This document shows, one piece after another, positions 3,001 through 12,000 of a DNA stretch of 46,064 nucleotides. A program made the translations under genes and the position numbers. The number at the start of each line of letters is the position of its first letter. Within the stretch, counting starts at the first letter, position 1. The stretch comes from Candidatus Shapirobacteria bacterium (GTDB lineage: Bacteria > Patescibacteriota > Microgenomatia > UBA12405), in NCBI GenBank assembly GCA_903825325.1, contig CAIKAI010000044.1, forward strand, positions 1-46,064, read 5' to 3'. Below the pieces are notes generated by a model that was given only the letters and a program-made list of their open reading frames with translations, was not told the DNA's origin and searched no databases.

Positions 3001-6000
3001 ATCAAGCAAATCATCTCTCAGAACTACTTTATTTTCATTATCATTTCCTGTCAAAATTATTATTTTATTAACCGACGGATGAAAATAAAAATTATCTTGA
3101 ATCGCTTTATATAAAGTCAACCTTCTCACCACCTCCGACTGAATTGGCGGCATTTCGACCGAAGTTTCAACATCACCAAAAGATAGTTTTATTGGGTTGG
3201 TATTTACCCCAACCAGATTCCATTTATTAACTGATACAACTTGATGAATCACAGTCGAAATTAAATCGTAATCTGACTGGCGAATCCCAAATTCTCCGTA
3301 TCGACTAATCAAATTATTCCAAACCCCCACCTCATTCCGAGTCATCATCGACTCAATTAGTTTTACCAACCCTGCATTAGATCCATAATCATTATCGATG
3401 ATATTATTAATTTTATCGAGTCGATATCGGATTAGATGGTCAATAATTATCTTTTTCGAGACTTCATCATTAACATTTATTATTTTGGGGATTTCTTGGG
3501 CTAGATAATTCTCCATTCCAGAATAGTCTCCCGACAACCAATCTACCGACTGATAAATCGCCAACGGTATTTTTATTTGCATGACCGCAGCATAGACATC
3601 ATCAGCATTCGCAATAATTTGACTCCTCATTCCCACCAACGACTTCGACCAGGTCCACCTCATCTGCCATGGCGCAAAAGTTTTACTGGCTACTTGAACA
3701 TTTTTTAACCCCATCAATTTCATCTCGGCCACCAAATTCATCTCTTTGTTTTGTGCCAAAACCGGCGCCAGCAAATTAGCCGTTGTTGTCGACAGTCTAA
3801 AATCACCATCCACCGCCAATTTGTTAATCAAATTATCCAAAATTTCTTTCTCTTGGCCTTTTAAATTAACTCCCAATTTGGGCCTAATTGTTACTAGTCC
3901 GGTATTCACATTCTTTATAGCAATCACATCGTCTGCCAATTGGTAAAGAACCGTCTGCCGCATTTCCACATCTTCAATCGCCTTTTCAAAACTATTATTG
4001 ACGGCACTTTGTCGATAATATGGTCTCAACATGTCTCTAATTTCCTGATTTTGTTTTTGTGCCAAATCAGTTTCCGGCAACACCACCGGCTCTTTTACCA
4101 CCGTTCTTTGAATCGCCCGACTTAAGTTTACTAATGTCGCTGCGGTCTGTTCCGCTATCCCCGGCTTCGCCACTCTTAAGTTATTTGCAATTGTTTTTTG
4201 TCCGCTTAGATTTACAGGGGCATTACTTGATTCTAATTGAGTCGATGCGTCTTCATTTCCTCTCTGGTTATATACGTAAGGAATTCTTGCCGATTGTCTT
4301 CTAATCTGTAATCTCCCCTCTTCTGCCGAAATCTGGATTCTCTCCCATACTGATGATGGAGTTACAGCAATAGCGTTTACTTCTGTTGTTTCCGTTTCCA
4401 AGATTGTTTTGTAGTCTTCTAGGGTTTGTTTCTGTTCTGTAGTTAAATCCTTTCTCGTGGTTAATAATAGGTCAACTCGGTCTTTGGTTAATTGAATGGC
4501 TCTAATGGCGGCATCTTTTCGAGCTTGGGTTTTAACTATTTTTAATCTTTCGATAGCAATGTCTTTGTTTTGAATTAATTGAGCTAATTTGTTAACGTAT
4601 TCATGACTATTGGCATAAAGATTAGCCACATCAACTGCTTGGTTCGCCGCTGTTTGATTATGTTTCAAATTAAATATTTCAGCTTCAGTCAACTTCTTAT
4701 TAACGGTACCATCTCGAGCTGGACAGGAAGCAAATCCGGGGGAACAAAGAGCCGCACCTTCCAGCACTACTACTCTTCCCCTAACTGTTTTATCCGTCAA
4801 TGAAATTTGTATTGCCGAAGTCGCCACTGGCACAACCACACTCTGCGATATAGTCGATCCCAGATAACCTGCCAACATATCCACTAATTGTCTGCCGGTC
4901 AATTTAACGAACTTGTCATCTCCTGCAAATACCTGATTAAACAAACTAAACAATGGCACCCAATCCGATATTTTATTCCAATACTTGGCTGACAAGGCAT
5001 TCTGATTCCATCCATTCTCTGTCATCTGACGATGTATCCGAAACAAATTTAACTCGGGAAACTCATACGGATCACGTCCTGTCAAAGCATAAAAGGCTGT
5101 AGTTATTAGTGCCCGTGTATCTTCGCTGGTGCTTTTCACCCCAGTATATATATATTGCGGCGATATGTTATAGGCTGGAGTTCCAATTGGGTCATTGCCA
5201 ATCTGTTCCATTGACGACACTCCAAAATCAATTAATTGGGCCCCCAATTCTCTCGAAATAATTATATTGCTGGGTTTTACATCACCATGAAATTGGTATT
5301 TCCCCTCAACCACTGTTTTATGAATTGTATCCACCGTATCAGCTATTTGCCTCATCCACAACATTACTTGAGTATCAGGCACTTTCTCACCCAATGATCT
5401 CGCATCCGCAATAAAATCAGTCAAATTAGGTCCATAAATAAAGTCCATTACTCCATAAGCATCTGTCACATCTCCTAAGCCATCTATTACCGGGACTAAA
5501 TCATACGCCACTGGCACATCCAGACTCATATATTTAGCCAATGTTTGCATCTCCAACTTCATATCAATCGCCTTATTATCACCAATCATATTCTGCTTTA
5601 TAATCACCATTTTAAATAAATGTGTATCCCAACCAATAAACACCTGCCCCATACCACCTTTAGCCATAGCATCCGCGCTAATTAAGTAACGACCACCCAG
5701 CATTTTCGTCCCAACTATCGGTTGATTCAGAATTTGTGGATTATTACGAACCTGCTGTAAATATTCACTTTCCAAACTTTCAATTTCTGCTTCCAAATCA
5801 GGCAAGGCACTTTTATTTATAGTTCTCAAAACTTCTGCTCCTCCCGAAATCTTTAACGACTCAATTGATGGATGTAAATAAAAATTATCGCGGACTGCCT
5901 TGTAAACAATCAATTTTCTCACCACCTCTGATTGCACTGGCGGCATTGGCACATTAGTCGACATTCCTCCAAAACTTAATTTTAATAAATTTACTCCGCC

Positions 6001-9000: not shown

Positions 9001-12000
9001 AGGAAGATTATATTTTATTTGGTAAGCTCCATAAATATTTTCTATTTGCAACAAGGTAATCTCTGGATTGTTCCGAATTTGGTTTTCCAAATCTGCTCTT
9101 AACTCGGCCAAACCTTTTTCTTGATTTTGTAGTCTAGCAGTATAATCTGCGGCTATTTGTCGATACTCCTCCTTTAATATTTGACCTTTTAAATTGCCGA
9201 TCCTTTGGATTTCTAAACTGGCATCAAATACGTTGGCATTGACCACTTTGACATTAAATATTGGGGGCGTCTTTTCGTCAGTTTTTCCATAGTAATTTCG
9301 TAAAGCATAAATATAGTAAGTCGCACCTGTTGAATCTCTAACTGTTAAGCGTCCACCACTTTTAATATCCCAACCGCCATTCACTTGTGAGGCATTAATG
9401 CTCTCAACAACCGTCAAATTCCTTAAATCAAAAACTATTTCACCGGTAGTCTCGGTATATGAAATTGTATAGTTAACTGTGTTTGAACCTAAATAGAAAA
9501 TGTTGTTAACAGAAATCGGTTGACCATATTTAATAATTACCGATATTTCTGACAAAGTGGTTTTATTTTTTATTCGAAGCACTTCTCCCTCGTGAACAAT
9601 ATTTGATTCTTTATTACTTCCATCCCGACCATAGACCGTAAATGAATATTCATCATCTAGCTTCGACGCGGAAAATCCACCGTCACTAGTTTTTAAAAAT
9701 GGAACACGTCTTGTGAATGCATCATCCGTAAAGTCACTACCTTCAACTAAAAACAGCTTATTGTTTCCCATATCTGCCTGAGATAATTTTATCAACTTAA
9801 TAACCAACCCATCAATGAAATTAATATATCCATGGTCAGATGGCGAACCTACTGAAAGGGCTTTTTCCAATCCCAATTCAATTCCAAAGTTTCCCCAACC
9901 GACAGACTTGTCAAACACCTCTGCAAATAAATCTTCAATCGAGTTATATTTATTTAATTTTTCCAAATAGGTCATTAAAATATCGAGTTGAGGTTTGTCT
10001 TTTGGAATGGTTAGATTTATTCCAAATTTTGAAATTATTGCCTGGGCTGTTTTCTTTTCGATGGCATAGTTCTCAGCATCGGTTATTTTTTGATTATAAG
10101 CATTGGTCATTGACTGCAACTTAGTTACTTCAATTCCTAAATCAGCTGCTTTTGCTAATGATTCAGTTACTTTGGCAATATTTCGACCATCGACTTGTTT
10201 CACCGAATTAACATAAGTTTGCAAAGCTGCTGCGTCTTTTTCTTTTTGAACATTTTTAGTATCTGTTTGTGGTGCTGGTTGACCTACCCCTGCAGTTCCT
10301 ACCTCTGGCAAGACCACCTGTTGTTGTTCCAATTCAGTATCTTGCATCTCTCTTTGAGTTAATACAAAAGGTATTCTCGCTGTTTGTCTTCTAACTTGAA
10401 TATCACCTCTACCTATAGCTGTTTGTATCCATTCTGATGGTGAAGAATTAGCTACTGGGGTATTGTTAACATTTGTTTTATCCGTTTCCAATTGTTGTTT
10501 AAGATTGTTTAAGATAGTTGTCTGTTCTACAGTTAAATCCTTTCTCGTGGTTAATAAGAAGTTAGTTCTATCTAACGTTAGCTGAATCGCTCTAAGTGCA
10601 TCATCTTTTTCAGCAGTGGTTTTAACGATGTTTAAGTGTTCTACTTCGACTTGTTCATTTTGGATATCTTGTGCTAATTGATTAACATACTCATGCGAAT
10701 TAACATAGTTTCTTAAACTATTTAATTGAGTTAAGGCTTCATTAATTTTATTTTGTTTAAGAAGATCATCAATCTTGGCTAATTGTGATTTAACTACCAT
10801 AGCTCGAACTGAGCAGGAGGAGAATCCGGGGGAACAATTTTCGTCACCTTCAATTCCATTAATATTATTTTCTGCCGCGGCTTCTTCGCGAATTTGTTCC
10901 ACGTTTATCTTATCCAATACAACTTCTTGCCCTAAAGTATTCTCTATTAAATCCATAGCACTGGGATTTTCAATTACCTTGATATAACCCACATATTGAT
11001 TGAGTTTTGCTGCCTCTAACTTGTCGACCAATAACTTTTTCTCTTCTTCACTTCGAACAATAATTCTCGAAATATATTTTCCGCCAATACCCACCTTAAA
11101 CATTTGTTCATTCCCAGCGTTGTATCCGTTAACCACCTGATCCTTTAATATTTCTTCCGGCGTTTGTCTGTCTTGATATGTAGATAAATCAGTTGAACCA
11201 TATTTATCGCTATTATAAGCATACATATCTACTCGGTTGATCAGTGTGGGTCTAAATAATATGGTGATTTTCCCAACTCCTAACGCCGAGTTCTCCACCC
11301 CATTCGCATTTTCCGCCACCATTCTGGTAAACACATTATCTGCTCCACCGGTTTCCAAATCTCTCGACGAGCTTAAGCCTTCAGTAAACACCCCTCTCGA
11401 CCACCGTTCTGACGTCGACATCAAACCGCCATTGGCTAAAATCAGCAGTAAATCATCTTCCGAATTTACGTTATGGAAAATCGCAAATCGGCCATATTTC
11501 TCAGCTAATTTAGTCGACCGTCCTTGTTCTTCATAAGTGACGTATTCCGGATAGGCGGTTACTTTCGACAAATCATTTATCCCCTCATCAGTCGCCTGAG
11601 TTTTTGTTTGCGCCTCCAGTAAATTTTGTTTCAGTAACGTTTCCGACAACACATCCATGCTGCCAAATATTCCCCCAATGCCAAATTTCTCTCTAAACAA
11701 ATCGGCAATCAAACTTGCCGCTCCTTCACTTCCCAATTCTTTTAGTTTTGCCTGATCAATTTCCACATTTACCAACCCCACAGCTGATCGCACCGTATTA
11801 CCCTTGTCGTTTGTCGCTCTCGCTAATTTAACCGTCACTCCTTGATAAACAATTTCCACGGCATTAGTCATCAGAATGGTCGCTTCATTATTTTCCGCGG
11901 CTGATACAAAATTAATTTTGCCTTCTTTAAACTCGCCTGGTTTCAGACCGGCAATCGCCTGATCGAGTATGCTTTTATCCAGCTTGAAACTAATCACCAC

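Follow-up and report, generated by a model that had tools for sequence, protein, structure and literature searches.

A recurrent cysteine-paired unit at the module junctions of a giant protein from Candidatus Shapirobacteria

The DNA analyzed here, 46,064 nucleotides of contig CAIKAI010000044.1 (assembly GCA_903825325.1, Candidatus Shapirobacteria bacterium; hereafter the window), is bacterial chromosome and contains, on its reverse strand, a giant open reading frame (ORF) of at least 10,737 codons (1..32211, a stop-free frame that is open at the window start; residue i starts at nucleotide 32211-3(i-1)). The encoded protein carries three copies of a conserved unit of about 180 residues, which begins with a pair of cysteines in the motif CSPGFxSC and is found at the starts of modules that differ from one another, both in this protein and in three other giant proteins. 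On the basis of this repetition, of the sharp boundaries of the unit, of the unrelated modules that accompany it in the four proteins, of purifying selection, cysteine pairing, a predicted helical fold, and an excess of synonymous identity between copies, we favor the following explanation, to which we give about an even chance of being correct: the unit would be a self-contained domain serving as junction or adaptor, a helical bundle capped by a disulfide and located at the N-terminal edges of exchangeable cargo in giant proteins of the Microgenomates group within the Candidate Phyla Radiation (CPR), and its core would be kept alike by gene conversion. Bacterial proteins that exceed 10,000 residues have almost no annotation, and a portable domain marking the starts of their cargo modules would permit their rational dissection for structure prediction and expression.

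The CSPGF motifs start at residues 7126, 8257, and 9156, that is at nucleotides 10836, 7443, and 4746 (EGDENCSPGFSSC, EGSENCSPGFDSC, and EGAALCSPGFASC, respectively), exactly where a sequence-only reading of this DNA had placed a thrice-repeated linker. The units to which they belong were delimited by a hidden Markov model (HMM) and by BLASTP; they span residues 7116–7299 (copy 1; 10315..10866), 8247–8429 (copy 2; 6925..7473), and 9146–9333 (copy 3; 4213..4776), all on the reverse strand, like every other feature of the giant ORF given below. The three copies align over about 180 residues, rather than the 160 or so first attributed to the consensus, with 69 invariant columns, and the motifs NSHEY, IVKT, KDxAxRAIQLT, and TRKDLT are present in all of them. 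Pairwise BLASTP comparisons among the copies gave E-values of 1e-33 to 5e-48, and the HMM built from the three copies scores each of them at an E-value of about 1e-100; it found no fourth copy in the giant ORF or in the neighboring 2581-aa ORF. The 18-mer AGTTAAATCCTTTCTCGT, which encodes TRKDLT and had also been pointed out in the sequence-only reading, is exact at positions 4441, 7141, and 10531, with 0.02 matches expected by chance.

The boundaries of the unit are sharp. Homology of copy 1 to copies 2 and 3 begins at (I/L)EG, five residues before the first cysteine, and stops after about 180 residues, and the 100 residues that precede the unit do not align between copies. Each of copies 2 and 3 is the first part of a tandemly duplicated stretch of some 900 residues (residues 8246–9113 and 9145–10045, 42–65% identity), made of the unit, about 330 residues, and a Ser/Thr kinase, so that the three copies are real but two of them are not independent; copy 1 has only the unit in common with the others. 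Pfam and NCBIfam together recognize two Ser/Thr protein kinase domains and one VanY in the whole giant ORF, and nothing else. Kinase domain 2 (residues 8836–9050; 5062..5706) lies about 400 residues after copy 2 and kinase domain 1 (residues 9779–9984; 2260..2877) about 450 residues after copy 3, while the VanY-type D-Ala-D-Ala carboxypeptidase domain (residues 10104–10221; 1549..1902) lies downstream of kinase 1, with no junction unit between the two. Copy 1 is followed by a module termed HExxH-B (residues 7685–8033; 8113..9159; HEEQH at residue 7870), a paralog of HExxH-A (residues 4988–5340); neither of the HExxH modules matches a peptidase family in Pfam or a structure in the PDB, and HExxH-B is, from its motif, a candidate metallopeptidase. 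Among the three enzymatic modules initially assigned to the protein, the two kinases are thus confirmed by Pfam, whereas the enzymatic nature of the third is suggested by its motif alone. Similarly, the units are indeed at module starts, as was claimed, but they are not immediately N-terminal to the enzymes themselves: a gap of 400–450 residues separates the unit from the kinase catalytic domain that follows, and one of 570 residues lies between copy 1 and the HExxH motif. A degenerate second unit hidden between the linker and the kinase was ruled out by BLAST and hhalign. Finally, a degenerate FHA-like segment (residues 8107–8231; 7519..7893), identified by BLASTP similarity (E-value 9e-7) to a region of one of the related proteins described below (P0003) for which Pfam lists FHA, ends about 15 residues before copy 2; the window protein has no direct Pfam FHA match, and the canonical GR and SxxH phosphothreonine-binding residues are missing from the segment in the BLASTP alignment.

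An exhaustive HMMER profile search over 1.84 billion representative proteins (cluster representatives) returned four matches, of which three are true and one, the cadherin-repeat protein P0002, was rejected as spurious; the window protein itself is absent from these matches. The three true relatives are all giant proteins with exactly one unit each, and the sequences that flank the unit differ among them. In P0001 (4404 aa) the unit (3609–3782, E-value 4.5e-38) is preceded by a stretch with an HExxH motif and followed by a kinase, and a cluster mate of this protein, MFA7301742.1, is entered as "MAG: protein kinase [Candidatus Shapirobacteria bacterium]". In P0003 (4562 aa), whose gene lies on an 865-kb contig, unannotated sequence precedes the unit (3827–3997), and the module that follows has an H..HD motif, seen by eye only and without Pfam confirmation. 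In P0004 (2584 aa) the unit (636–779) stands between a Metallophos domain and a stretch of unrecognized sequence with DUF7790. The linker thus recurs in other giant proteins, and its role as a marker of module boundaries, proposed from the window alone, gains support both from the sharp edges of homology and from its position between unrelated sequences in these three proteins. Word-indexed searches of 5.8 billion proteins with the three-copy and six-sequence alignments returned no match, although they also missed the very proteins of the query alignment. Scans of GTDB species genomes and JGI metagenomes recovered the same Shapirobacteria contig only, with no further family members, and scans of viral contigs found no relative of the unit.

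The six unit sequences of the four proteins align end to end. Identity of the window copies to the unit of P0001 reaches 43% (copy 1 being the closest, with a similarity that continues about 50 residues upstream of the unit) and is 20–21% over the whole length for P0003 and P0004. Conservation is highest in the core (A/I)EKD(D/E)A(I/L)xA(I/V); the His of NSHEY is replaced by Tyr in P0003, and four of the six sequences have (I/L)EG ahead of the Cys loop, the residues just upstream of the unit being unconserved in P0003 and P0004. Between the window protein and P0001, the unit is conserved at least as well (43% identity) as the kinase catalytic region (31–37%). On the side of known families, the best Pfam matches of the unit (E-values of 0.0015–0.12) fall below their cut-offs and involve a different family for each copy, NCBIfam has no match in the unit region, PADLOC has none, PHROGs matches are inconsistent (E-value of 0.004 or more), and a sequence search of the PDB gave a chance match only (E-value 0.04). 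The unit is therefore a previously undescribed domain family, which is of very narrow distribution and statistically solid.

Structure prediction suggests what kind of domain this may be. A first AlphaFold2 (AF2) run on three sequences was unusable (pLDDT, the predicted local distance difference test, of 56), but the six-sequence alignment gave a model of seven helices with a pLDDT of 72.8 and a predicted template modeling score (pTM) of 0.61, in which residues 70–150 reach a pLDDT of 83–96. Its helices are polar and amphipathic, without any that has the hydrophobicity of a transmembrane segment. Because AF2 predicts a compact helical bundle, we read the unit as a folded all-helical domain without a flexible hinge, and the hinge that had been proposed would be better termed a folded spacer or adaptor; flexibility, if any, would reside in the C-terminal 25–30 residues, which are poorly conserved and have low confidence in the model, and in the unconserved residues before the unit. 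Foldseek searches with the model retrieved generic helical bundles only (best E-value 0.41 in PDB and 0.1 in BFVD), none of them significant. The best of these nonsignificant neighbors, spectrin repeats and pectin methylesterase inhibitor-like four-helix bundles, are likewise compact antiparallel bundles used as spacers; with E-values of 0.4–0.5, a TM-score of at most 0.4, and a root-mean-square deviation above 10 Å, they give no evidence of a relationship.

The distribution of cysteines in the giant protein gives an independent view of the CSPGFxSC motif. Close pairing of cysteines is typical of disulfide-bonded extracytoplasmic proteins. The protein has 35 Cys in 10,737 residues, and all but one (34/35) have a partner within 22 residues, when random placement gives on average 4.5 paired Cys and at most 16 in 10,000 randomizations. 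Fourteen short-range pairs (C-x6..20-C) are located in residues 196–1310 (28282–31626), most densely in residues 464–985 (29257–30822), and eight of them head tandem repeats of about 65 residues. No Cys is found from residue 1311 to residue 7125 (about 5,800 residues), after which come the three linker pairs, C7126-x6-C7133 (CSPGFSSC; 10813..10836), C8257-x6-C8264 (CSPGFDSC; 7420..7443), and C9156-x6-C9163 (CSPGFASC; 4723..4746), and then one lone Cys in kinase 1. P0001, P0003, and P0004 show the same Cys economy, and a Cys pair is present at the start of all six units, as C-x6-C in the window copies and P0001 and as C-x2-C in P0003 and P0004, with an invariant second Cys. Most simply, CSPGFxSC would be a disulfide-stapled loop in an extracytoplasmic protein, in copy 1 a predicted cap before helix 1; this agrees with the disulfide knob that was one of the initial proposals for the motif. 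A catalytic role of the Cys pair is unlikely because the linker pairs behave like the other 14 pairs. The N-terminus of the protein has a basic stretch followed by one hydrophobic segment (residues 15–35, a putative signal-anchor). We also considered that the Cys-loop head of the unit might be homologous to the N-terminal Cys-loop repeats of about 65 residues, which it resembles in style, and that the unit Cys might belong to a lipobox or an internal signal peptide; the former was rejected by hhalign (probability 0.5%) and the latter by inspection, which showed no upstream hydrophobic stretch and N or L before the Cys.

At the DNA level, copies 2 and 3 are more alike within the unit than elsewhere in the duplicated module. 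Across about 180 nucleotides (7117..7293 in copy 2 and 4417..4596 in copy 3), a candidate gene-conversion tract, most 30-nt windows are 87–93% identical and one is 78%, and the tract includes a 42-nt exact run and the shared 18-mer. The proportion of synonymous differences (pS) between these two copies is 0.34 in the unit core versus about 0.73, that is saturation, in the rest of the module. When codons for identical residues are compared, copies 2 and 3 use the same codon at 72 of 97 positions in the unit (41.5 expected at saturation, about 43%) and at 156 of 312 positions in the rest of the module (134.7 expected), a significant difference (Fisher p = 2e-5); in the unit, the corresponding counts are 48 of 78 for copies 1 and 2 (33.4 expected) and 45 of 71 for copies 1 and 3 (29.5 expected). 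The simplest cause of this excess of synonymous identity would be gene conversion between copies. Purifying selection on the unit protein is also real, because conversion cannot explain conservation between genomes, where the unit exceeds the kinase region; within the window, its dN/dS (0.35) is not below that of the rest of the module. Other candidates examined for the unit and its boundaries were rejected: conservation of the DNA on account of a known structured RNA (no Rfam match), a conserved antisense ORF (none at equivalent positions of the three copies), and separate transcription units (promoter-like and terminator-like sites at chance level).

These observations can be assembled in a scenario in which the unit would be an autonomous folded domain of about 150–180 residues, made of a disulfide-closed loop and then six or seven amphipathic helices, and would serve, at the N-terminal edge of cargo modules that can be exchanged, as a junction or adaptor. 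The proteins that carry it would be giant, poor in Cys, anchored in the membrane, and presumably extracytoplasmic, and would belong to CPR bacteria of the Microgenomates group (Shapirobacteria and their relatives). The ancestral state was probably a single unit between the protein body and a C-terminal kinase, as in P0001. Tandem duplication of a unit-plus-kinase cassette in this genome, together with a further unit before the HExxH module, would have produced the present three copies, and gene conversion between them would keep the unit core alike in DNA; the unit would therefore supply a homology tract for the duplication or exchange of cassettes. Such an arrangement recalls the pre-toxin junctions (VENN, PT-TG, PT-HINT, and Rhs DPxGL), where a conserved element marks the place at which the protein body ends and exchangeable C-terminal modules begin and also serves as a recombination junction. 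Like them, the unit shows an excess of DNA identity consistent with recombination between copies, and the modules that follow it vary, from kinases (P0001, copies 2 and 3) to HExxH (copy 1), H..HD (P0003), and the DUF7790-containing sequence of P0004. Unlike them, it is a whole folded domain and not a short motif, it has no Pfam match to those families, and no strain-level cassette polymorphism accompanies it in two strain pairs. The small ORFs that follow the P0001 and P0003 genes have no Pfam annotation.

Several points weigh against this scenario. The strain pairs just mentioned (P0001/P0005 and P0003/P0006) are 93–100% identical in every 300-column window, so that no exchange of cassettes after the unit is seen in them, although there are only two such pairs. 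Ser/Thr kinase and FHA-like domains are typically cytoplasmic, which is awkward for an extracytoplasmic protein unless these domains are delivered into another cell. The fold is that of an AF2 model and the disulfide is deduced from statistics; moreover, model confidence is lowest in the Cys loop (pLDDT below 50) and is also low in the last 25–30 residues. The family amounts to six sequences from four proteins, which makes conservation statistics thin. The strong conservation of the polar motifs NSHEY, KDDAxRAIQ, TRKDLT, and RR suggests that the unit is more than a spacer and has a specific role in binding or catalysis. Lastly, the low synonymous divergence could instead reflect selection at the nucleotide or RNA level.

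If the unit is a junction domain, its boundaries are concrete sites where cleavage could be probed by proteomics, and recombination between its copies offers a possible handle on the origin of new module combinations. The economy of Cys pairs, for its part, is an argument drawn from sequence only for an extracytoplasmic protein, kinases included, and if this location is correct the kinases would act outside the cytoplasm of the producer, possibly in a host cell. On the other hand, should the unit be no more than a structural spacer, what is left is a new domain, of unknown function, in a family of rare proteins.

Among the alternatives, a proteolytic release site comes first, but we consider it unlikely. 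The protein would be cut at or near each unit by one of its own HExxH modules or by a partner peptidase, freeing the HExxH module and the two kinase modules, in the manner of effector release in MARTX toxins and of the metallopeptidase (MPTase)-mediated processing of polyvalent proteins. The location of the units at module starts fits this idea, and so do the two paralogous HExxH...E segments, possible zincin-type peptidases, the (I/L)EG before the Cys loop in four of the six sequences, and the conserved RR near the C-terminal end of the unit. In addition, MPTase autoprocessing has been proposed for polyvalent proteins (PMC5512222), and whether giant bacterial proteins are cleaved is an open question in the literature (10.1101/2023.11.21.568195). 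The processing site suggested by the sequence-only reading is nevertheless unsupported here. Pfam and NCBIfam scans of the ORF found no known autoprocessing domain (CPD/C80, HINT/intein, GPS/SEA, C39, or S8), the HExxH segments match no peptidase family or structure, the unit has no invariant nucleophile/base pair apart from its structural-looking Cys, and its Cys behave like the 14 structural pairs and unlike a lone nucleophile. Furthermore, the sequence just upstream of the unit is unconserved in P0003 and P0004, a folded helical bundle of 150 residues is unlike known inter-effector cleavage sites, and VanY follows kinase 1 without an intervening unit.

The systems on which this alternative is modeled resemble the window protein in architecture only. 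MARTX toxins are also single giant polypeptides with several enzymatic cargo modules in series, but what lies between their effectors is a short unstructured linker, cleaved after Leu, and not a conserved helical domain. Pfam scans of the whole ORF found neither Peptidase_C80, the cysteine protease domain (CPD) by which MARTX effectors are released, nor glycine-rich RTX-type repeats, the internal repeats of the giant ORF being Cys-loop and helical repeats. Polyvalent proteins, which belong to phages and conjugative elements, associate many unrelated domains on one polypeptide, including Ser/Thr kinases, HExxH metallopeptidases, and peptidoglycan peptidases, and autoprocessing has been proposed for them in an article in which the word "linker" was not found (Iyer et al. 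2017, PMC5512222). The enzymatic domain string of the window protein is similar, and type IV secretion system (T4SS)-like genes lie near the P0001 gene; however, the window gene is among chromosomal housekeeping genes (RuvC, MurB, and a MacB-type ABC transporter), and its kinase is a full Pkinase-type match in contrast to the truncated polyvalent type. Also comparable are the giant proteins of predatory or episymbiotic bacteria such as Omnitrophota, for which cleavage has been raised as an explicit open question (West-Roberts et al. 2023, 10.1101/2023.11.21.568195). The Omnitrophota proteins are membrane-anchored, exceed 10,000 residues, occur in ultra-small bacteria, and have long unannotated stretches and cell-wall-active domains, but they belong to another phylum and no homology was detected.

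A second alternative, which draws on analogy and which we regard as doubtful, is that the unit is an entry or translocation domain that would help the following enzyme to enter the cell of a host or prey. An episymbiotic lifestyle is presumed for CPR bacteria of this group, and the kinases would make more sense inside another cell; in addition, T4SS-like genes lie 1.5 kb from the homologous giant gene in the P0001 locus (L001). The closest functional analog in the literature would be the cytoplasm-entry domain of CdiA-CT. Entry domains of this kind, which like the unit have roughly 150 residues, are located directly N-terminal to variable toxins, are mainly alpha-helical, have in most cases a Cys pair, which stabilizes the fold, and fall into many unrelated families (PMC9424206). 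The unit has all four of these traits, being N-terminal to differing modules, helical by prediction (seven helices), provided with a Cys pair in the six sequences, and unrelated to other families. It departs from the entry domains in context and in fold. We found no sequence or fold similarity, including to CdiA-CT complexes of solved structure (best Foldseek E-value 0.41), and no CdiA among the 50 Foldseek PDB matches listed, for a model of moderate confidence. In CdiA the only copy is C-terminal and follows a VENN pre-toxin motif, whereas the unit is internal, is present in three copies, and starts with (I/L)EG...C without a VENN-like motif. Pfam found no haemagglutinin, two-partner secretion (TPS), or PT-VENN domain and no body of filamentous haemagglutinin (FHA) repeats, and the cargoes, kinases included, have 600–900 residues, far above the size of CdiA toxins. 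The hosts differ as well, since CPR bacteria are presumed to lack an outer membrane.

Delivery and release could be combined in a single, bolder reading, to which we lend little credence. The unit would then be the release-and-delivery adaptor of a multi-effector surface "harpoon" of an episymbiotic CPR bacterium, marking where each cargo (metallopeptidase or kinase) detaches and escorting it, by means of the disulfide-stapled helical bundle, into the host cell. If true, this would be the first cleavage and delivery code described for bacterial giant proteins, with a DNA sequence that doubles as a cargo-swapping recombination junction.

The unit may also be viewed as a functionless footprint of segmental duplications in a fast-evolving giant gene, its conservation resulting from recent copying or gene conversion. 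In favor of this view, copies 2 and 3 lie within a tandem duplication of 900 residues, synonymous divergence is low in the unit core, and the dN/dS of the unit is not below that of the rest of the module. We hold it to be improbable, given that the unit is conserved across genomes, beyond the reach of conversion, at 43% identity to P0001 (above the kinase) and at 20–21% in P0003 and P0004, that its boundaries are sharp and reproducible with different neighbors, and that a compact domain is predicted.

Near the C-terminal end of the unit, the sequences RRQT, RRLT, and RRQS (residues ~7273–7276, ~8404–8407, and ~9306–9309) and RRHT in P0001 occupy one alignment position and conform to a basophilic kinase-type consensus, RRx(T/S), which might speculatively be a phospho-acceptor site; the three sequences with Thr carry I/V/L at +3. 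A regulatory docking or phospho-acceptor element, which the kinase modules would phosphorylate and the FHA-like segment directly before copy 2 would read, is nonetheless very improbable, since no kinase follows copy 1 or the units of P0003 and P0004, the FHA-like segment lacks the GR and SxxH binding residues, and RRx(T/S) is degenerate in P0003 and P0004.

Some features of the surrounding genes and of the remainder of the giant proteins also deserve mention. Upstream of the giant ORF are genes for a SIMPL/DUF541 protein, RuvC, a metallophosphoesterase, MurB, and a MacB-type ABC transporter, as well as another very large ORF. The SIMPL/DUF541 gene (32189–32845, reverse strand) overlaps the start of the giant open frame; a homolog with 46% identity is directly upstream of the giant gene in the P0001 locus (L001 9304–9969), and another SIMPL/DUF541 gene is found near the P0003 gene (L003 22768–23529), a case of conserved synteny. 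The second very large ORF (38318–46063, reverse strand, at least 2581 residues) runs off the window end and carries, close to the C-terminus, fn3 and purple-acid-phosphatase N-terminal-like domains; just upstream of the P0003 gene, too, a Pur_ac_phosph_N protein is encoded. In L001, a distance of 1.5 kb separates the homologous giant gene from a T4SS-like gene set downstream of it (24775–32289), in which PrgI-like, TraC-like, and VirB4/TraG-type ATPase genes are accompanied by one for a 1119-aa protein with a weak Peptidase_C39_2 match; DnaA and DnaN are just upstream.

Within the giant proteins, the N-termini of the window protein (residues ~20–45, nucleotides ~32100–32150), P0001, and P0003 share a signal-anchor helix followed by LVQQNQENR, LLVKRSQDNR, and LVQKTADNR, respectively, a motif that may act in secretion or processing as a signal particular to the lineage. 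The block in which the window protein and P0001 are most alike (residues 2251–3134, 22810–25461, versus residues 893–1803; 34–43% identity) has no Pfam or PDB match; in P0001 and P0003 it contains the Walker-A-like sequences GVGSGKS and TTAGGKT, while a strict G..GK[ST] is absent from the window protein. Residues 4181–4435 (18907–19671) are 44% identical to the N-terminus of P0004 and carry the motif YKSNSxGGW; the same domain is present in P0003, a little upstream of the junction unit, and represents another shuffled module, without annotation. Lastly, a second short, helical-looking repeat, QQQL..AKQ.VR..YPQLDLFENQALE...GLKAAEVAVAA, shows 64% identity between two otherwise unrelated regions of the giant protein (residues 4598–4686 and 5586–5670; 18154–18420 and 15202–15456) and may be another type of junction element.

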